A DNA stretch of 64,000 nt from Nitrososphaerota archaeon. GTDB taxonomy: Archaea; Thermoproteota; Nitrososphaeria_A; Caldarchaeales; Caldarchaeaceae. This document shows positions 7,591 to 26,977 of this stretch, in pieces. A model generated the notes under the pieces. That model saw only the letters and a list, made by a program, of their open reading frames with translations. It made no database searches and was not told where the DNA came from. The stretch spans positions 480,001 to 544,000 of the forward strand of contig JBEPYN010000001.1 of assembly GCA_041641305.1 (NCBI GenBank). Reading direction: 5' to 3'. Within the stretch, counting starts at the first letter, position 1, and each line of letters starts with the position of its first letter. The position numbers were made by a program, and so were the translations under genes.

Positions 7591-8760
7591 ATGAGGAAAA
7601 GGTTTGCAGCTCTTTTGCTTACGTGGGTTTCTTGGTTCTGGAGCCATGGTACACGTGTGGGCATATCGGCGATTACGCCATTCATCCGCCAGAGATACAG
7701 CATGTCCACACCCGAGGCCGCCGCGGTGCCCGGAATACTCAACCTCGGCTTCTACGGCTTCGCAGTCTTCTCGGGAAAAGTTCCGTCAAAGACGGGGTAC
7801 AGAAACACGGCAGCGGCTGCAGCCCTCGGCTCCGCAGCCTTCATGTTCTTGGCCGCCCTTTTCGACAACCAACTATTCCTCTACGTGGCCGTGTTCATGA
7901 CAGGAATTTTCCTTTCCCTTCATCTGCCATCTGTGATACCTTGGCTGGGCACACTCTTCAAGGGTAGTCGACAGGGGTTCATCATAGGTGTGCATGAGTC
8001 GGCGGCGCCCGCTGGCCAGACGCTTGGCCCAATCATACTTGCTATTCTCGTATCAACTGTTGGAGTAGCCTACATGTTCGCAGCATGGGCATTCATCCCA
8101 TTCCTCGCAGGCCTCTGCCTATTGCTCCTATTCCGCGGAGACAGGCAAATGCCTGCACAGGTTGTTGGCGGAGGTGGAAAAATTTTTGACACGGAGTTTC
8201 TCGCTCTGACCCTTGTAACGGTAGCCAACCTAGTCGGAAACCTCGGAGTCGTCGCAATTGTGCCGCTGCATCTCGTGGACACCTTCGGATTGGAGAAAAC
8301 CTTCGTGGCTACGGTGGTTGGTGTCAGCAGGTTATTGGGCGTCTTTGGACAGCCTTTAGGCGGATACCTCCACGACAAACACGGTTTCTACAAAGTCGCG
8401 CTAATAGTAACTGTGGCCAACCTCTTTTCCAACATTTACTTGATTCTAGCGCCATACAATCCTCTATACCCTGTTGTCATGACCATCCAAGCATTCGTGA
8501 CAGCAATGTACTTCCCCCTCGTCTACAGTCACCTCGTCAAAACTCATGGCCCACAGGCATCACAATATCTTGGCTCTATGTTCTTCATAGCTGGACTCGC
8601 AGGTCCCACGACCGCGCCAATCTTAGCAGGGTTTATTGCGGAACGGGTTGGTTATGCAGCTGCTCTCGGCTATCCCGCTGCATTGGCTTTGGCCGGTTCT
8701 CTCATGATGCTTTCTTTGCGAAAAGGAAAAAATATGGGTTCGATAGTTAACCATGGCTGA
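7591..8760 (+). CDS. MFS transporter
   Basis: 389 aa, about 12 hydrophobic segments, GGYLHDKHG loop motif. Confidence 0.8.
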   Translation: MRKRFAALLLTWVSWFWSHGTRVGISAITPFIRQRYSMSTPEAAAVPGILNLGFYGFAVFSGKVPSKTGYRNTAAAAALGSAAFMFLAALFDNQLFLYVAVFMTGIFLSLHLPSVIPWLGTLFKGSRQGFIIGVHESAAPAGQTLGPIILAILVSTVGVAYMFAAWAFIPFLAGLCLLLLFRGDRQMPAQVVGGGGKIFDTEFLALTLVTVANLVGNLGVVAIVPLHLVDTFGLEKTFVATVVGVSRLLGVFGQPLGGYLHDKHGFYKVALIVTVANLFSNIYLILAPYNPLYPVVMTIQAFVTAMYFPLVYSHLVKTHGPQASQYLGSMFFIAGLAGPTTAPILAGFIAERVGYAAALGYPAALALAGSLMMLSLRKGKNMGSIVNHG

Positions 8761-8766
8761 TTTGAA

Positions 8767-9903
8767 ATGGTTGTCATCAAGCTTCCGGATGTTGGAGAAG
8801 GAATAGCCGAGGGGGAGGTTCTGAAGTTTCTTGTGAAGGAAGGTGATTTTGTGGAGAAGTATCAGCCGCTCGTCGAGGTTATGACAGTGAAGGTGACGGT
8901 TGAGATTCCATCGCCCGTGAGGGGCCGTGTCACAAAGCTTTTGGCTTCGCCGGGTCAGGTGCTCAAGGTCGGCGACCCATTCATCGAGATAGAGACAGAG
9001 GAAGCCGTTGAATCACCCGTTGAAGATAAGGGGGCTGTTGCGCAGGCTGCTGCACCCACTTCTACGGTTGAGAAGGCTACAAAGGTTCAGGCAACTCCCG
9101 CGGTAAAGAAGCTTGCAAAAGAGCTCGGCGTGGACCTCTCAACAGTTGTGGGAACAGGACCGGGTGGAAGAATCACTGAGGAAGATGTGAGAAGAGCTGC
9201 GTCATCTGAAGAGACACGCATACCCATAAAAGGTCTTCGACGCATCATCGCTGAAAGACTCGTCCAGGCCAAGACACGGGCAGCCCTCGTCACTGTTTTT
9301 GAAAATGTAGACGCCGAGGAGCTTGTCAAGCTCAGAGACGAACTCCGGTCTATGCAGGATGAGAAGGGTGTTAAGATGACGTACTTGCCGCTGGTTATGA
9401 AGGCGGTGGTTGCAGCTGTAAGGGATGTTCCCGCTATGAATGGATGGGTTGATGATGATAGAAACGAGATAGTTTTGTCGAAATCCGTCAACATCGGTAT
9501 AGCCGTCGACACACCCGATGGACTTCTAGTACCAATTGTCAAAAATGTTGAATCAAAAGATGTGTGGAAATTGGCGCGTGAGATAGAGGAGTTGGCTGAG
9601 AAAGCTCGTAGCGGTAAACTCTCTCTCGACGACGTTAGAGGGGGGACCATAAGCATATCCAGTTACGGATCACTCGGCTCGCTGTCAGGAACTCCGATAA
9701 TCAATTACCCGGAGATAGCTATCGTCGGGGTTGGCCGTGTAGAGAAAAGGCCTGTCGTGAAAAACGATGCTGTGGTTGTTGGGCATGTGATGGAGATTGC
9801 TGTTACGATGGACCACAGGGCTGTTGACGGTGGAACGATGGCGAAGTTCGTCAACTCGCTCAAACATCATCTCGAAAACATCAGGGCCGCTGCGGGAGTT
9901 TGA
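8767..9903 (+). CDS. 2-oxoacid dehydrogenase E2 (dihydrolipoamide acyltransferase)
   Basis: Lipoyl domain (LPDVGEGI...MTVKVTVEIPSP), E3-binding GTGPGGRITEED, catalytic DHRAVDG. Confidence 0.92.
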   Translation: MVVIKLPDVGEGIAEGEVLKFLVKEGDFVEKYQPLVEVMTVKVTVEIPSPVRGRVTKLLASPGQVLKVGDPFIEIETEEAVESPVEDKGAVAQAAAPTSTVEKATKVQATPAVKKLAKELGVDLSTVVGTGPGGRITEEDVRRAASSEETRIPIKGLRRIIAERLVQAKTRAALVTVFENVDAEELVKLRDELRSMQDEKGVKMTYLPLVMKAVVAAVRDVPAMNGWVDDDRNEIVLSKSVNIGIAVDTPDGLLVPIVKNVESKDVWKLAREIEELAEKARSGKLSLDDVRGGTISISSYGSLGSLSGTPIINYPEIAIVGVGRVEKRPVVKNDAVVVGHVMEIAVTMDHRAVDGGTMAKFVNSLKHHLENIRAAAGV

Positions 9904-10523
9904 AAAAAGTTTCGGAGCTGGGGTTTAGGACGGACAGCTGGTATGAGGTGATTGTCTCAACCTATTCAGAGCATGGCGAACCACATTTCGCGGCGATGGG
10001 ATGCGGCCTTTCGGATGATGAGCATCTTATCCTGAAACCATACACCAACACAGAGACCTACAGAAACCTACTATCACAAAGGGCCGCGGCCATAAACATC
10101 ACCAACGAACCCGTTCACTTCTACTCTGCAGTTTTCAAAAAACAGCTTCCCCATATACGGAGCGACAAGGTCCCAGCACCACTTCTCGACGGAGCTGACG
10201 CATGGATAGAAGCGGTGGTTGAAAACATCTCCAACGACGCCCCTGATAGAGCCGTAGTCACACTAACCCCAGTCAACATAAAACCCGCCCAGCCATATAT
10301 ACGACCGTATTCACGAGCTCGCCATGCGCTTATTGAGATGCTCATACACTACACTCGGGTCAGGGTTTTCGCGCATACTCCGATGCATCACAGGGCTGTA
10401 GCTTTGGCTGAGAAAATTCTGGACTACGCGGCTCTCGTTAGACGTGTATCCTCCAACTCTGTTTATCTCCATATATGTGAGGAGGTTGTTAATGAGCTGG
10501 GTAAGCTGGGTGTGCTGGGTTGA
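9900..10523 (+). CDS. DUF447-family protein (flavin-reductase-like split barrel)
   Basis: YEVIVST...PHFAAMG...TETYRNL...RARHALIEMLIHYTR pattern; adjacent to RFAP synthase. Confidence 0.75.
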   Translation: MKKVSELGFRTDSWYEVIVSTYSEHGEPHFAAMGCGLSDDEHLILKPYTNTETYRNLLSQRAAAINITNEPVHFYSAVFKKQLPHIRSDKVPAPLLDGADAWIEAVVENISNDAPDRAVVTLTPVNIKPAQPYIRPYSRARHALIEMLIHYTRVRVFAHTPMHHRAVALAEKILDYAALVRRVSSNSVYLHICEEVVNELGKLGVLG

Positions 10524-19079: not shown

Positions 19080-19676
19080 TTGCTTGCGGCCGTAAACGCC
19101 GCGGCAGAGGCCATAAAACGCGGTGGCGTGATAATTTACCCGACTGATACGGTTTACGGTATTGGCTGCGACCCCTTCAACCTCGACGCAGTACAACGGG
19201 TTATCGATGCTAAGAAGCGGGAGAAGAAGCCCGCCCCGGTTCTGGTAAGCGACCTGGACCAGCTTAACGAGGTTGCTGAGCCGACTGAGGAGGAGCTGGA
19301 GGCCGCTATTCGTCTCTGGCCCGGGGCTGTAACAATCGTGATGGCTAAGAGACCTGAACTGCCTGATCTGGTCACGGCGGGTGAGAAAACAGTAGGGGTG
19401 AGGATGCCCGCACACATGGTTCCTCTCATGATTATGCAGAAGACCCGCAGACCCTTGGTTGGCACGAGCGCCAACATATCCGGAGAACCGGCGGCAACAA
19501 CCGTGGACCAAATACCCTCAAGCGTCCTCGAGAGTGTGGACGTTGTCGTAGACGCTGGCAAAACACCTCATCAACTACCGTCGACCGTTGTGAGAATTCA
19601 GCGAGGTGATGTTATTGTTTTGCGTGAGGGCGCGGTGTCCCGCGAAGAGATTATGCGGAGGATTGGGCTTAGATGA
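19080..19676 (+). CDS. sua5: L-threonylcarbamoyladenylate synthase (TsaC/Sua5, YrdC domain only)
   Basis: YPTDTVYG, KKR, WPGAVT, TSANISG, PST. Confidence 0.92.
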   Translation: MLAAVNAAAEAIKRGGVIIYPTDTVYGIGCDPFNLDAVQRVIDAKKREKKPAPVLVSDLDQLNEVAEPTEEELEAAIRLWPGAVTIVMAKRPELPDLVTAGEKTVGVRMPAHMVPLMIMQKTRRPLVGTSANISGEPAATTVDQIPSSVLESVDVVVDAGKTPHQLPSTVVRIQRGDVIVLREGAVSREEIMRRIGLR

Positions 19677-20211
19677 GGGTTGAGGCTATTTTCTGCATTA
19701 TTGCGAGCTTGAGTGCTTCGGTGCTTGTTTTCGCTTGGACGGATTTGTAAATTTTGTCGCTAATTCCGTAGAGTTCAGCGAACCGTGTTGGGTTAGGGTT
19801 TTTCGGCAAATCTATCTCACCGCCCTCAGCAAGAGACAGAACCGTCGCCGCCTTCTCCTTAACCTGTTCCAGAGAACCTCCCAGCACAAGAAAAACCGCC
19901 CTATCGCATCCGGGGTTAAGCCCAACCTTCTCGATGGCTTCGCTGATTTGTGTGGTCGCGGCAAGCCGTATCAACACCTCATTGGACAGAGTGCGCGCCC
20001 TCTGTCGGCCAGCCCGTATGGCCAAGACCGCGTTCACGAGAGCAGCGTCGAAAACGTCCCAGTCAAGTACAGAGTCTGCGTCAAAGACCTGCGCATCATC
20101 CACGCTGCCACGCACCCTCTCCACAAAATCTTGGACAGCTTTGTCACGCAGCCTAACGACGCCGGCGGCGAAAAACAAATCCAAAACTTTTCCCACCCTC
20201 ATCTCAGCCAC
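19669..20211 (-). CDS. cgi121: KEOPS complex subunit Cgi121
   Basis: AQVFDAD, ARTLSNEVLIRLAATTQISEAIEKVG. Confidence 0.85.
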   Translation of the reverse strand: MAEMRVGKVLDLFFAAGVVRLRDKAVQDFVERVRGSVDDAQVFDADSVLDWDVFDAALVNAVLAIRAGRQRARTLSNEVLIRLAATTQISEAIEKVGLNPGCDRAVFLVLGGSLEQVKEKAATVLSLAEGGEIDLPKNPNPTRFAELYGISDKIYKSVQAKTSTEALKLAIMQKIASTLI

Positions 20212-20470
20212 CGTGGATGGAGGGTATCACCGTAACCACATCATCCTCGTCAACCACTGTGTCCAGCCAAGTTAGATACCGCACGTCAATACCGTTAACC
20301 AGTATAAGCAGCCCAGGCTGAGGCCGCCCAGCCTCATCCATAATCATCCGCCGAACCTCCTCACCAAACATCATAAAAACATCCCTCAACCGAATCGGCT
20401 CCTTCAACTCCATTTCGACGTACCTCTTCCCCACCACCGCCCTCAGAGGACCCAGCAACTCAACCCTCAA
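20204..20470 (-). CDS. Urm1/SAMP/MoaD-like ubiquitin-fold sulfur carrier
   Basis: C-terminal VTVIPSIHGG and PGLLILVNG; start reassigned to the TTG at 20470 because the longer ORF overlaps the next gene. Confidence 0.85.
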   Translation of the reverse strand: MRVELLGPLRAVVGKRYVEMELKEPIRLRDVFMMFGEEVRRMIMDEAGRPQPGLLILVNGIDVRYLTWLDTVVDEDDVVTVIPSIHGG

Positions 20471-20545
20471 CACAGACCACTCAAGCAACGCTGTAAAAAA
20501 CTTATCAGAAGAAAATTTTTTAGATATTCCTCCAAACTCAAGGCC

Positions 20546-21049
20546 GTGAAGGTTCCGGAAGAACGTTTGAAGATATTCTTCGAGATGGAGGAAAAATTCA
20601 GGCAGAAAGATGCAGAATATTTCAGGACTCTGCTGAAGAGCGATGACTTCGTTATCCGCGCACGGGCCACATGTATTTTGGCTGAGATAGGTGGCAGAGA
20701 CTATATACCGGATCTCGCAGAGGTTCTGCTTCACGATGACAACCCCATTGTACGTCACGAGGCGGCGTACAGTCTTGGGCAGCTTGGCTACCGCGAAGCT
20801 ATTCCCTACCTAGTCGAATCCATGAAAAAAGACCTGCATCCCATAGTCCGCCATGAGTCAGCCATAGCCCTTGGGGTAATAGGTAGAACAGACCCTGTCC
20901 CAGACCTGCTCGAGGCTTTGAAGGACGCGGCTCCCGAGGTGGTGGACTCTGCCATCATAGCGCTGAGCAACATAGAGTTCTGCAGAAGGCTTTTCACACA
21001 ACCAGTGGGCGATGAGGCGGCGGAGTTCGCCCGCAAAACAGGAGGCTGA
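20546..21049 (+). CDS. HEAT-repeat protein resembling one half of deoxyhypusine hydroxylase
   Basis: EZ-HEAT repeats with VRHEAAYSLGQ (H71-E72) and VRHESAIALG (H103-E104). Confidence 0.75.
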   Translation: MKVPEERLKIFFEMEEKFRQKDAEYFRTLLKSDDFVIRARATCILAEIGGRDYIPDLAEVLLHDDNPIVRHEAAYSLGQLGYREAIPYLVESMKKDLHPIVRHESAIALGVIGRTDPVPDLLEALKDAAPEVVDSAIIALSNIEFCRRLFTQPVGDEAAEFARKTGG

Positions 21050-21088: not shown

Positions 21089-21559
21089 GTGATGAGGTAT
21101 TCCCGTGTTGAAAAAGAATTTACCTTCAAGCTGAACGGTGAAGAGGTGAGGATTAGGGCGCCGCCGGGGTACACTCTTCTCGAGGTCCTGCGCCATGTTC
21201 TTCATTTGACAGGTACAAAGGATGGATGCAGCAGCGGCGACTGCGGAGCATGCACAGTATTGCTGGATGGCCGCGCTGTACATAGTTGTTTGACTCTTAT
21301 TTCTCAGGTTGAGGGGAGGGAGGTGACAACTGTCGAGGCTATTGATGAAAAGGTTGCGGAGGCCTATGCTCGGCATGGGGCGGTGCAGTGCGGATACTGT
21401 ACACCCGGGTTTGTGGTGGCCACGGCGTCTTTGCTAAACAAGATTCATAACCCTTCTACATCGGAAATAAGGGAGTGGCTGAGGGGCAACCTCTGCAGAT
21501 GCACCGGCTACGTCAAGATCGTGAAGGCTGTCGAGTCGCTGGCCGGTGAAGGCGGTTGA
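21089..21559 (+). CDS. Mo-hydroxylase small [2Fe-2S] subunit (CoxS/XdhC-like)
   Basis: GCSSGDCGAC, QCGYCTPG, NLCRCTGY. Confidence 0.95.
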   Translation: MMRYSRVEKEFTFKLNGEEVRIRAPPGYTLLEVLRHVLHLTGTKDGCSSGDCGACTVLLDGRAVHSCLTLISQVEGREVTTVEAIDEKVAEAYARHGAVQCGYCTPGFVVATASLLNKIHNPSTSEIREWLRGNLCRCTGYVKIVKAVESLAGEGG

Positions 21560-22428
21560 AATCCCTCAGCTACATCGAAGTCTTCACACCTAGGAACCTC
21601 GAGGAGGCGCTGGATCTTCTCGATAAACATAGAGGAGAGTTGGCTGTTTTGGCGGGCGGCACCGACCTCATAATCCAGCTGAGGAAATCCCAGCAACGGG
21701 CACCCAACCTGCTCAACATCTACATGCTCGACGAGCTCAGATACATCAAACTGGAAAACGGGTTAATCAAAATCGGGGCTCTCACAGACTTCGCGACGAT
21801 AACGGAGTCGCCGATTATCCAGAGGCATGCGACGGTTTTGGCCGAGGCGGCGGCCACCATAGGGTCTGTCCAGATACTGAACAAGGCCTCGATAGGAGGA
21901 AACATAGTAAACGCTTCACCTGCCGCAGACTCTCTACCGGCCCTCTACGTTCTCAACGCAACACTAACACTTAGAAGCAAGACGGAGACACGGAAAGTGG
22001 CTATCGAACAGTTCTACAAAGGATACAAGAAGCTCGACCTTCGGAGCGGCGAACTGTTAACAGAGGTCTCCTTCCCAGCCATAAAGCAAAACCAGGTGGG
22101 TATGTTTTTTAAACATGGGCTTAGGCAGGGGGATGCGATATCTGTTGTAAACGGCGCCATACTTCTCGATGTTTTGAACGGCTTTGTCAAAGACGCTAGA
22201 ATAGCGCTTGGAGCTGTTGCGCCGACAGTCGTACGTGCCACGGAATCTGAGAAAATCCTCATCGGCAAACGCCTTGATGAACAGGTTATCCGTGAAGCTT
22301 CACAAGCATGTCTCAGCTCCATTTCGCCGATAGATGATGTGAGAGGTTCCGCGGATTATAGGAAAGAGATGTGTGTCAACTATCTCTACATGACTCTTTG
22401 GCAAATCATGAGGATGGTGAATCCATGA
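21556..22428 (+). CDS. Mo-hydroxylase FAD subunit (CoxM/XdhB-like)
   Basis: LAGGTDL, IGSVQILNKASIGGN, DDVRGSADYR. Confidence 0.93.
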   Translation: MKSLSYIEVFTPRNLEEALDLLDKHRGELAVLAGGTDLIIQLRKSQQRAPNLLNIYMLDELRYIKLENGLIKIGALTDFATITESPIIQRHATVLAEAAATIGSVQILNKASIGGNIVNASPAADSLPALYVLNATLTLRSKTETRKVAIEQFYKGYKKLDLRSGELLTEVSFPAIKQNQVGMFFKHGLRQGDAISVVNGAILLDVLNGFVKDARIALGAVAPTVVRATESEKILIGKRLDEQVIREASQACLSSISPIDDVRGSADYRKEMCVNYLYMTLWQIMRMVNP

Positions 22429-24695
22429 ACCAGTCTGCTGCATGGGTTGGTAAAGAGGTTGTGAGGAGAGATGCGTTGGAGAAGGCGCGGGGGCTGACGA
22501 AATATGCCTCCGACATTTTTTTGGACAACATGCTCTGGGTGATGGCGTGTAGAAGCAAGTATCCTCACGCGGCGATAAAGCGGATAGATGTTTCAAACGC
22601 TTTGAGGAGCCCGGGGGTAGTGGCTGTTTTCACGCATCGTGACATACCCAACAACAGGTATGGCGTCTTCGTCAAAGACAGGCCCGTGCTCTGCGACGAT
22701 AGAGTGCGTTACATCGGAGACCCTGTAGCTCTGGTGGCGGCTGAGTCTAAGGAGGAGGCTGAGCAGGCTGTTGAGGAAATTGTTGTGGAGTATGAGCCGC
22801 TGCCGGTTGTCTCGGACCCTTTGGAAGCCATGAAGCCAGATGCATTCCCCATCCATGAAGGTGGAAACGTTTCGCGAAGCACTCGCATATCCTTCGGCAA
22901 CGTGGAGGAGGGTTTCATGGCCTCGAAGGTAGTCGTCGAAAACGAGTACCGCACCGCGCCGCAGATACATATGTTTCTCGAGACGGAGGCGGGCGTCTCC
23001 TACATAGATGAGAAGGGTGTGATAACTGTTGTTGCAGGCGGCCAGTCACCATACAGAGACCATCACGAGATTGTTTCCACGCTTCAGCTTCCCCCCGAGA
23101 AGGTGAGAGTTGTCATCCCCCATGTGGGCGGGGCCTTCGGTGGAAAAGACGATGTCTCGGTCCAGATTTATCTCGCGCTCGTGACTTGGAAAACGGGGAG
23201 ACCGGCCCGCTTCGTCTGGAACAGAGACGAGTCAACCATAGCGGGAACAAAGCGTCACGGCTCAATAGTCAGAATGAAGACAGGTGCTTCGGCGGATGGA
23301 AAACTTCTGGCAAACGACGTAGAAATCATCTACGACACAGGCGCCTACACCGCTCTCGGACACGCTGTCCTCGACGTCGCCATAGAGAACTGCAACGGCC
23401 CCTATAAAATACCTAACATAGACATCAAGGCATGGCTCGTATACACCAACAACATGGTCGCGTCTGCGTTCCGCGGGTTCGGCGCACCGCAGGTGATGTT
23501 CGCGATGGAGCAGCAGGTTGACCAGCTTGCACACGACCTTGGCCTGGACCCGATAGAGTTCAGGCTCCGCAACGCGTTGAGAAAAGGGGATGTTATGGTC
23601 TTCGGCAACAAGCTTGAAACCAGTGTGGGGATAGCGCAGTGTCTCGAAGCGGCGCGAAACCACCCAGTCTGGCGTAACAGAGACACGGTAAAGACTGAGC
23701 CTAGTCTGCCCTGGATTAGGAGAGGCGTAGGCGTTGCGGCTGCGATAAAGGGGTTCACGCTTGGAGCTTTGCCCGACAGGGGGAGCGTGGCTGTCGAGCT
23801 GCGGCTTGACGGAGGCATAACAGTAAAGGGTAGTTTTACAGAGATTGGGCAAGGCGTCATACAGGCAGTTGCTCAGCTGGCCGCCGAGCTCTTCAAAACC
23901 GACATAGAGAATGTGGAAGTTGTCTTTGCAGACACGGGCAAAACACCTGACACGAGCGTGACATCAGCGTCCCGGCAGCTATTTCTCGCAGGAAACGCGT
24001 TGAAAAAGGCGGCCGAGAACATGCTCAACCACATCCGAGAATTTCTGGCATCACAGTATGGACATAAAGTGACAGAGGCCCGGTTCGAGAACGGATGCGT
24101 TGTTGGACCTGGCTTCAGCCACTCGTTTAAGGAGATTGCGCAGATGCTTGAGGAGCATGGCCTCTCTAGAGAGGTTGTGGGTGTGTATGATGTTCCACGG
24201 GTCGAGCCTATTCCAGGTTCTCTTGAGATACCGCATCTATTCTACATGTTCGGCGCAACCCTGGCCCTTGTCGAGGTCAACATCTTGACAGGTGCTGTGA
24301 CCGTGCCCAAGCTCGTCAGCATAGCAGACGTAGGTAAAGTGGTCAACCCTCAGACTTTGACAGGTCAGCTGGAGGGGGCGGCGGCTCAGGGGCTTGGATT
24401 CGCACTCACCGAAGAGCCGAAGATAGACAAAGGCATATTGAAGACCACCAACCTCTCCACCTACCTCATCCCAAGCATAAAAGACGTCAACGAAATAGAC
24501 GTCATCCCGGTTGAGAGCCTCGAGGACGAGGGGCCATTCGGCGCCAAAGGCATAGGCGAGATAGGCATAATCTCAGTAGCACCCGCAATCGCCAACGCCA
24601 TATACGATGCCGTCGGAGTTCGCCCAAAATCTGCGCCCATGACACCTGAGAAGGTTTACTGGCTACTCAAGCAAGCCGGTATAACCGTTAAATAA
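22425..24695 (+). CDS. Xanthine dehydrogenase/aldehyde oxidoreductase-family molybdopterin subunit
   Basis: GGAFGGK, AFRGFG, IGQG, GQLEG, AKGIGE; start placed at ATG 22425 overlapping the stop of the FAD subunit. Confidence 0.92.
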   Translation: MNQSAAWVGKEVVRRDALEKARGLTKYASDIFLDNMLWVMACRSKYPHAAIKRIDVSNALRSPGVVAVFTHRDIPNNRYGVFVKDRPVLCDDRVRYIGDPVALVAAESKEEAEQAVEEIVVEYEPLPVVSDPLEAMKPDAFPIHEGGNVSRSTRISFGNVEEGFMASKVVVENEYRTAPQIHMFLETEAGVSYIDEKGVITVVAGGQSPYRDHHEIVSTLQLPPEKVRVVIPHVGGAFGGKDDVSVQIYLALVTWKTGRPARFVWNRDESTIAGTKRHGSIVRMKTGASADGKLLANDVEIIYDTGAYTALGHAVLDVAIENCNGPYKIPNIDIKAWLVYTNNMVASAFRGFGAPQVMFAMEQQVDQLAHDLGLDPIEFRLRNALRKGDVMVFGNKLETSVGIAQCLEAARNHPVWRNRDTVKTEPSLPWIRRGVGVAAAIKGFTLGALPDRGSVAVELRLDGGITVKGSFTEIGQGVIQAVAQLAAELFKTDIENVEVVFADTGKTPDTSVTSASRQLFLAGNALKKAAENMLNHIREFLASQYGHKVTEARFENGCVVGPGFSHSFKEIAQMLEEHGLSREVVGVYDVPRVEPIPGSLEIPHLFYMFGATLALVEVNILTGAVTVPKLVSIADVGKVVNPQTLTGQLEGAAAQGLGFALTEEPKIDKGILKTTNLSTYLIPSIKDVNEIDVIPVESLEDEGPFGAKGIGEIGIISVAPAIANAIYDAVGVRPKSAPMTPEKVYWLLKQAGITVK

Positions 24696-26014: not shown

Positions 26015-26977
26015 CTACTCGAATTCCTCCAGAAGCGCCAGCACAAGCAGAGGCAGTGCAACCGTGGCATCCGTTTTCACGAAGACATGACGCCCCTTTG
26101 ACGAGATTTTATGCCATGTAATTGCTTCCTTTGGCCTCGCCCCGCTCAGGCTGCCGTCATATTCATCAGCCGTTGAGATGTAAACCGCTGTGTCAAGCCC
26201 CTCTCCACCGAACTGAGACCACCATAGAAGATGATGCTTCGATATTCCTCCACCAAGTATAAGCCCCGCTTTTCGGCGGCTACTCCACATCATCTCGTTG
26301 AGCAGGTCCTGGTCTCTTTCATACTGCAGCCTAATTCCCATACTTCTTCCACGAAGCCACATCTGATATCCAAAGGCGCCGTCAAAAATTCCCGGAACCA
26401 TGACGGGAACCCTGTGTCTATAACACCAGTAAAGCCATGAGTTTTCGGAGCCCAGCCTCTCCCCAACTCTCCACAAAACCTCATACACAGGAAGATCTGC
26501 TCCGGAGCCAAGCATGGTTACAAGGTCTGCGACCTCGCGCTCAACCACCAGACCATAGCTTGACTGGTCGATGTAGACGTTGCCGAGACGGTGGATGTTT
26601 TTCTCGGCCAACTCCCAGTCATCGGCGTCAAAGCTGCCAACCATGTACCGTGACCTTGTGCGGGCGATGTCGTGGTCCACGGCCCCGCACGTTGTAAACA
26701 CCAAGTCAAACCATTTTCTCCGCAGCATCTCCACAAGAACCCCGCGGAGACCTGTCGCCACGAGGTTGCCTGTAAAAGAGACCATCCTCAAACATTCTCG
26801 TTCGGATAACATGTCTCTGAGAAGCTGACATGCCTCAGCGAGATGAGCCCCCATGAACCCGCCCATCCTACCCATCATGCGCAGAAGCTCCGCCGCCGAA
26901 CACCCCTTCACCAGCTTCACATCCTCAACATACATAGATGTATCCGCTGAATCGCCGGCTATAAACCCGCGAAACAA
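26015..26977 (-). CDS. dys: Deoxyhypusine synthase
   Basis: SFTGNLVATG, HRLGNV, GGGISKHH, DGSLSGA..EAITWHK (catalytic Lys retained), DAT. Start may be the ATG at 26935. Confidence 0.92.
   Translation of the reverse strand: MFRGFIAGDSADTSMYVEDVKLVKGCSAAELLRMMGRMGGFMGAHLAEACQLLRDMLSERECLRMVSFTGNLVATGLRGVLVEMLRRKWFDLVFTTCGAVDHDIARTRSRYMVGSFDADDWELAEKNIHRLGNVYIDQSSYGLVVEREVADLVTMLGSGADLPVYEVLWRVGERLGSENSWLYWCYRHRVPVMVPGIFDGAFGYQMWLRGRSMGIRLQYERDQDLLNEMMWSSRRKAGLILGGGISKHHLLWWSQFGGEGLDTAVYISTADEYDGSLSGARPKEAITWHKISSKGRHVFVKTDATVALPLLVLALLEEFE

Follow-up and report, generated by a model that had tools for sequence, protein, structure and literature searches.

A 167-aa protein of four HEAT repeats, encoded at 20546..21049 (+) of the window (the whole 64,000-nucleotide stretch analyzed, from a hot-spring archaeon of the Caldarchaeales), is by homology very probably a real and conserved member of the deoxyhypusine hydroxylase (DOHH) lineage. 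We assign a probability of about 60% to its putative function, predicted from sequence, as a homodimeric diiron hydroxylase acting on deoxyhypusine of aIF5A. The argument draws on homology, the conserved positions of ligand residues, a predicted fold resembling one lobe, a fused form found in nature, and a genomic context that includes genes for deoxyhypusine synthase (DHS), IF5A-like proteins, and polyamine enzymes. From these we infer dimerization, iron binding, O2 chemistry, and an aIF5A substrate for the half-size protein.

The ORF has a GTG start consistent with the N-termini of orthologues, and its product comprises an N-terminal helix, four HEAT repeats, and a C-terminal tail (Pfam HEAT_2, 7.9e-25; HEAT_PBS, 4.2e-16). 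Two His-Glu motifs are present, VRHEAAYSLGQ (residues 69-79; 20750..20782, +) and VRHESAIALG (residues 101-110; 20846..20875, +). They contain H71-E72 and H103-E104, respectively, with H71 and H103 separated by 32 residues, as the earlier note had described for a 167-aa HEAT protein. Orthologues in Caldarchaeales and ammonia oxidizers are 162-170 aa long and 44-92% identical to the protein; close relatives carry the names Candidatus Caldarchaeum or Caldiarchaeum subterraneum, and Nitrosopumilus and other ammonia oxidizers have relatives of 162 aa at ∼50% identity. The source organism is itself a Candidatus Caldarchaeum. When conservation was checked in 68 aligned orthologues, both motifs were invariant, at V69, R70, H71, E72, A73, L77, G78, and Q79 in the first and at V101, R102, H103, E104, A108, L109, and G110 in the second. 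The A-L-G-V that follows the second His-Glu is also invariant in the alignments of 19 and 68 orthologues, as are the N-terminal residues R7, M14, and E15. The tail, FARKTGG (residues 161-167; 21026..21046, +), ends in Gly-Gly and has the family consensus F-A-[KR]-x-T-G-G. In 19 orthologues there is no variation at F161, A162, T165, G166, or G167; in the 68, conservation at F161, T165, G166, and G167 is at least 90%. The Gly-Gly end is absent from the full-size forms of eukaryotes and DPANN archaea.

DOHH is an enzyme whose single chain of eight HEAT repeats forms two lobes of four in a symmetrical dyad (PMC8153317, PMC9117371). Six residues of its His-Glu motifs anchor the diiron center, and Glu residues together with two Gly residues bind the deoxyhypusine side chain (PMC9117371, PMC8153317); the Gly pair, given as G65 and G214 in PMC9117371, corresponds to human G63/G214. 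In alignments, H71-E72 and G78 of the half-size protein are equivalent to H56-E57/G63 and to H207-E208/G214 of human DOHH (residue roles from PMC9117371), and H103-E104 is equivalent to H89-E90 and H240-E241. Both motifs fall on the invariant His-Glu columns of DOHHs from Galdieria, plants, yeasts, and a nematode, and G78, located seven residues after H71 within L-G-Q, aligns with an invariant DOHH Gly. The spacing from His to His is 32 residues in the half-size and DPANN forms and 33 in most eukaryotic DOHHs examined. The earlier note's view of the protein as half of a DOHH is thus upheld at the level of sequence, with one lobe and with the iron-ligand and substrate-binding residues at equivalent places.

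The likeness extends to the organization of the repeats. DOHH (human 4D4Z/4D50, yeast Lia1; EC 1.14.99.29) and the half-size protein are both built of E-Z/PBS-type HEAT hairpins in a four-repeat lobe, have His-Glu in repeats 2 and 3 of each lobe at a distance of 32-33 residues, and have in common the signatures H-E-x-[AG]-[YF]-x-[LF]-G-Q and V-R-H-E-x-A-x-A-L-G. In both, the fourth repeat departs from the canonical form and has the pattern [DE]-S-[AC]-x-x-A-L; that of the half-size protein, V-V-D-S-A-I-I-A-L-S-N-I-E-F, looks like the corresponding repeat of DOHH lobes and is unlike the generic A-L-G-x-I-G. The proteins differ in that DOHH has ∼300 aa, eight repeats, and four motifs in one chain, whereas the half-size protein has 167 aa, four repeats in a single lobe, and two motifs, so that a dimer would be needed to supply the four motifs of DOHH. 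Being half the length of DOHH, the half-size protein would have to pair with itself. A heterodimer is unlikely in the source genome because no second HEAT protein of the half-size kind, as a candidate hetero-partner, was found there. The F-A-[KR]-x-T-G-G tail is likewise a feature of the half-size family and not of DOHH, and the half-size protein is archaeal, dispensable within its genus, and known here from sequence and models.

Generic HEAT_PBS proteins (CpcE/CpcF lyases, NblB, Escherichia coli YibA, and designed alphaReps) have the repeat type and solenoid fold in common with the half-size protein but almost entirely lack its motifs. As a control for motif rarity, we used the 148 strongest generic HEAT-protein matches from an exhaustive HMMER search, which together have 1,428 repeats. 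His-Glu occurs at the equivalent repeat position in only 2 of the 1,428; at that position His is first in 1.3% and Glu second in 5.3%. The His-Glu signature is therefore specific and no mere property of the repeat type. The exhaustive search covered 1.84 billion representatives and was dominated by very large HEAT proteins with many repeats, and the only sequence of use that it yielded was a fused protein, P0128, described below.

In a comparison with all PDB sequences, no natural protein matches the half-size protein better than human DOHH (4d4z; E 2.5e-24 from the single sequence); the only entries ranked above DOHH are designed alphaRep consensus proteins. With the family profile, 4d4z is matched in both lobes at E 6.7e-35. 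Domain scores for that profile overlap between eukaryotic DOHH lobes (50-93 bits) and generic HEAT segments (40-69 bits), and the link to DOHH consequently rests on motifs, lobe architecture, and genomic context and not on how similar the sequences are overall. Eukaryotic DOHHs rank right behind members of the family, a ranking that is not independent evidence since sequences were preselected by shared five-residue words such as VRHEA. The AF2 model of the monomer is all-helical and of high confidence (pLDDT 93, pTM 0.87). It superposes on one lobe of 4d4z at 2.7 Å over 138 columns, versus about 7-8 Å over a similar aligned length for most alphaRep chains, and DOHH has the highest query TM-score (0.71) among the structural matches listed.

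P0128 is a natural tandem fusion of two half-size units, 363 aa in length and with four His-Glu motifs. Its halves are 46% and 45% identical to the half-size protein of the window; the C-terminal half keeps the tail as FARLIGG, and the N-terminal half is without one. It thus has the motifs and tail of the half-size protein but is a single chain of two lobes with the predicted architecture of DOHH. In structure modeling, P0128 was used as a stand-in for the half-size homodimer. The AF2 model of P0128 (pTM 0.79) aligns to 4d4z_A over 302 columns at a TM-score of 0.83, a result that is consistent but not independent because the modeling alignment contained eukaryotic DOHHs. Every other HEAT or alphaRep structure scores 0.54 or less against the model, because these structures are continuous solenoids that do not have two facing lobes. 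Full-size relatives of ∼280 aa with four His-Glu motifs were found, in a scan of one genome per species, in Woesearchaeota/Nanoarchaeia MAGs and in one complete genome of this group. These DPANN relatives (e.g., P0297 and P0304) are archaeal like the half-size protein and have His-Glu motifs at equivalent positions with 32-residue spacing, but they combine eight repeats in one chain and have V-[IK]-H-E-[CG]-L as second and fourth motifs. The neighborhood of P0304, the one full-size DPANN locus examined, gave no functional pointer. A metagenome scan for further fused forms found only two short contigs of the ammonia-oxidizer type with half-size genes.

These data suggest how the half-size protein would work. 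Each chain would hold one iron via H71, H103, and E104, and two chains would meet head to head in the manner of the lobes in eukaryotic DOHH. The twofold homodimer would create the His4Glu2 diiron site known from DOHH, whose holoenzyme has two iron atoms and forms a peroxo-diiron(III) intermediate, with E72 and G78 of both chains lining a pocket for the deoxyhypusine side chain. The diiron site would activate O2 as a peroxo-diiron species, and the homodimer would hydroxylate deoxyhypusine on aIF5A, the product of the nearby DHS, to hypusine.

That DHS, a paralogue of 320 aa designated 'a', is located downstream at 26015..26977 (−), 4,966 bp from the stop codon of the half-size gene. It matches PF01916 (9.2e-90) over profile positions 1-286 of 288, and the intact DHS that the earlier note had placed ∼5 kb away is therefore present. 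DHS 'a' would make the presumed substrate, deoxyhypusine-aIF5A. The aIF5A gene itself is single, has the canonical SKPGKHGSAK loop, and is outside the window at G000:C2:149933-150103 (contig 2). The source genome has two DHS paralogues; 'b' is also on contig 2 (G000:C2:239759-240787) and is only 23-28% identical to 'a'. In G193, a genome from the same family but a different genus, the DHS located one gene from the half-size gene is 61% identical to DHS 'a'; identity of DHS 'a' to a DPANN DHS is 33-36%.

Other neighbors in the window are of diverse types. The half-size gene diverges from a Urm1/ThiS-like gene (20204-20485, −) across an AT-rich intergenic region of 60 bp (20486..20545; TTTTTTAGATATT) that presumably holds the promoters. 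In the source genus, the half-size protein and this divergent neighbor both end in Gly-Gly. Beside the Urm1-like gene, at 19080-20211, the genes for Sua5/YrdC (+) and the KEOPS subunit CGI-121 (−) converge with an overlap of 8 bp, and the three form a small cluster of tRNA-modification and sulfur-carrier genes; CGI-121 and Sua5 have KEOPS and t6A functions. Directly downstream of the half-size gene, at 21089-24695, is a CoxS/CoxM/CoxL-like operon (2Fe-2S, FAD, and molybdopterin subunits), and an aspartate kinase gene is also among the neighbors. In relatives within the genus, CoxS is separated from the half-size gene, or from the site where that gene is missing, by an extra CoxL paralogue (∼32% identity). 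The block from a V-ATPase subunit gene to DHS is syntenic in three further genomes of the genus, with DHS about 5-7 kb away.

Across the family, linkage to DHS recurs in three separate gene arrangements. In G193, DHS 'a' (7736-8659, +) is followed by DHS 'b' (8642-9676, −), and the half-size gene (9752-10252, +) starts 76 bp from the divergent DHS 'b'; genes for SLOG/LOG-like, ferritin-like, and SCO1 proteins follow. DHS 'b' adjoins the half-size gene in this genus (G193 and G374), and the copy in G374 matches residues 3-75 only and has a TAG stop inside. A coupling of the half-size gene to DHS 'b' was considered and rejected because, in Caldarchaeales, 'b' is present in 43 of 75 genomes and the half-size gene in 12 of 75. 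In 82 loci, mostly of ammonia oxidizers and including six DPANN loci, no DHS or IF5A gene is located within 10 kb. Neighborhoods in ammonia oxidizers instead have genes for redoxin, plastocyanin-like, Rad50/Mre11/HerA, and L15e proteins. A divergent gene for a redoxin/AhpC-TSA-like protein (∼220-230 aa) adjoins the half-size gene in 8 of 14 sampled ammonia-oxidizer loci and on two metagenomic contigs (L009:8998-9699, L027:834-1493, and L028:452-1108); it could encode a reductant partner or simply reflect conserved synteny.

The strongest functional link found for the half-size family is the cluster around P0128, which is encoded on an 18-kb DPANN-like metagenomic contig (locus L023). The DHS of this locus has 73-77% identity to other DHS proteins, and NCBI names some of these Woesearchaeota or Nanoarchaeota. 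A co-directional run with gaps of 5-171 bp encodes DHS, an Orn/Arg decarboxylase, a CN-hydrolase, an agmatine deiminase, and P0128. It is flanked by two genes with an IF5A-like N-domain, one on the minus strand before the run with a KAGKHGG loop and one after it with KTGKQGH. The flanking proteins have a long acidic N-terminal region followed by the IF5A-like N-domain only, and a C-terminal OB domain was not detected in either; they may be noncanonical substrates of hypusination. Judged by its gene content, the locus (L023:3857-10902) is an apparent hypusination cassette, in which the modifying enzyme and a DOHH-like protein are encoded together with enzymes of putrescine synthesis and candidate substrates.

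The half-size family is found only in Nitrososphaeria (ammonia oxidizers and some Caldarchaeales) and in a few DPANN relatives. It is present in 68 of 400 genomes spread evenly over the phylum Thermoproteota and its 61 sampled families, and has no match in 56 of these families. The gene is in 54 of 56 genomes of one family of aerobic ammonia oxidizers (Nitrosopumilaceae-like), in two and one genomes of two further ammonia-oxidizer families, and in 8 of 15 and 2 of 15 genomes of two Caldarchaeales families; across the whole order Caldarchaeales it is in 12 of 75. Half-size genes also turned up in Nitrosotenuis, Cenarchaeum, Nitrososphaera, and Nitrosotalea when one genome per species was scanned. 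All 12 Caldarchaeales carriers encode heme-copper oxidase subunit I, and the half-size gene is in none of 30 oxidase-less genomes. The association fits an O2-dependent enzyme, but it is nested in related families and hence confounded by phylogeny.

Within the genus of the source genome, two members (G230 and G344) have the syntenic locus intact but without the half-size gene. The order is Sua5-CGI121-Urm1, a gap of 91 to 211 bp (L113:5031-5242 and L114:2585-2676), then the CoxL paralogue and CoxS. Since these genomes keep the locus and not the gene, the half-size gene is dispensable within the genus. DOHH of yeast (LIA1) is likewise nonessential (PMC8153317).

For these reasons the protein is not "the" missing archaeal DOHH for which the earlier note had made it a candidate. 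According to the statement in PMC5178350 that cites Bartig 1990, Sulfolobus acidocaldarius contains hypusine. The S. acidocaldarius control genome had no HEAT_2 or HEAT_PBS match; its DHS, IF5A, and oxidase families were matched. The half-size family therefore cannot explain the hypusine of Sulfolobales. Neither can it explain that of the anaerobes Thermoproteus and Pyrodictium, in which an O2-dependent enzyme would fail.

Other functions can be considered for a protein with these features. It is unlikely, though worth weighing, that the protein is a DOHH-related iron oxygenase, either a dimeric diiron enzyme or a monomeric mononuclear enzyme of the 2-His-1-carboxylate type, with a substrate other than aIF5A, such as a free polyamine, the product of DHS 'b', or another protein with an IF5A-like loop. 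A single chain supplies a classical 2-His-1-Glu set, the gene can be lost within the genus, and its immediate neighbor in G193 is DHS 'b', which is only 23-28% identical to canonical DHS; the DPANN cluster, with polyamine genes and unusual proteins that have only the IF5A-like N-domain and altered loops, could be read in the same way. Yet DHS 'b' and the half-size gene are uncoupled in Caldarchaeales (43/75 versus 12/75), and a site made of two lobes is favored by the fact that two are retained in the natural fusions and in every full-size relative. The residues that contact substrate in DOHH are also invariant; these are the Glu directly following the first His and the Gly at His+7.

Less likely again is a noncatalytic HEAT protein, for example a metal-binding scaffold, chaperone, or sensor, in which His-Glu is kept for metal binding. 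Proteins of the HEAT_PBS type are mostly binders or adaptors, overall similarity is as high to generic HEAT repeats as to DOHH lobes, and in ammonia oxidizers there is no linkage to DHS within 10 kb. Against this, exactly the catalytic and substrate residues are invariant between Caldarchaeales and ammonia oxidizers at ∼50% identity, placement with DHS and IF5A-like genes is operon-like, and in Caldarchaeales the half-size gene is restricted to genomes that encode the oxidase. Names in Pfam ("PBS lyase HEAT-like repeat") and weak NCBIfam matches to NblB, CpcE, CpcF, and CpeY would suggest a phycobilisome lyase or NblB-type protein, an identity so improbable that we rejected it. The host is a nonphotosynthetic archaeon, and scores are about a tenth of the curated cutoffs (NF045915, NF058502, and NF058515; NblB, 31.3 versus 300 bits; CpcE, 25.7 versus 330; third model, 17.1 versus 220). 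Because none reaches the family threshold, these matches reflect the shared repeat type only.

With a homodimeric deoxyhypusine hydroxylase as the preferred reading, relationships among lobes bear on how the two-lobe enzyme arose. In a tree of four-repeat units (118 columns, with many forks not resolved), eukaryotic N and C lobes group together (88/92), and the N and C lobes of full-size DPANN proteins group with each other (100/97) and not with eukaryotic N or C lobes. The eukaryotic and DPANN groups are sisters (100/99), and the two halves of P0128 are together inside the ammonia-oxidizer clade (94/78). Forcing eukaryotic N and DPANN N lobes into one clade, equivalent to a single shared duplication, cost 46 log-likelihood units (AU p = 0.016), a constraint that was picked after the tree was seen. 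On the basis of these sequences, the tree favors a half-size ancestor that was duplicated independently more than once, or else lobes that evolved in concert. It does not show DOHH lobes to be closer to the half-size family than generic HEAT segments are, and the three groups meet at an unresolved node. The pre-duplication homodimer proposed in the earlier note fits both the natural tandem fusion and the tree of half-size units. More tentatively, and at somewhat less than even odds, the half-size homodimer would be both the ancestral DOHH and a working hydroxylase, the aerobic Nitrososphaeria, including the globally abundant ammonia oxidizers, would have fully hypusinated aIF5A, and the two-lobe chain would have arisen at least three times. 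The three duplications would have occurred in eukaryotes, in DPANN archaea, and in the lineage of P0128 after transfer of a gene of the ammonia-oxidizer type.

That no archaeal DOHH has been established, as the earlier note had stated, agrees with papers from 2012 to 2021, both reviews and primary studies, which report no archaeal orthologue (PMC3306375, PMC5178350, PMC6105217, PMC8153317). Our literature search found no paper tying hypusine or DOHH to Thaumarchaeota, Aigarchaeota, DPANN, or Asgard archaea, and none on the half-size family. The idea is not entirely new to databases, which have moved ahead of published work: several orthologues carry the JGI name "deoxyhypusine monooxygenase," and clusters in the ESM Atlas are automatically named "putative HEAT repeat-containing PBS lyase (DOHH)."

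The absence of an archaeal DOHH orthologue has left the formation of hypusine in archaea without explanation (PMC3306375, PMC5178350, PMC6105217, PMC8153317). The half-size family is a candidate for aerobic Nitrososphaeria only and no general answer to this problem, and it provides a concrete candidate gene in cultured ammonia oxidizers. If the protein is active, the hydroxylation step would be older than eukaryotes, and the family would show what a two-lobe diiron enzyme was like before duplication, as a homodimer. It would also represent an O2-dependent route that is separate from the enzyme making hypusine in Sulfolobales and in anaerobic Thermoproteota, groups without the half-size family.
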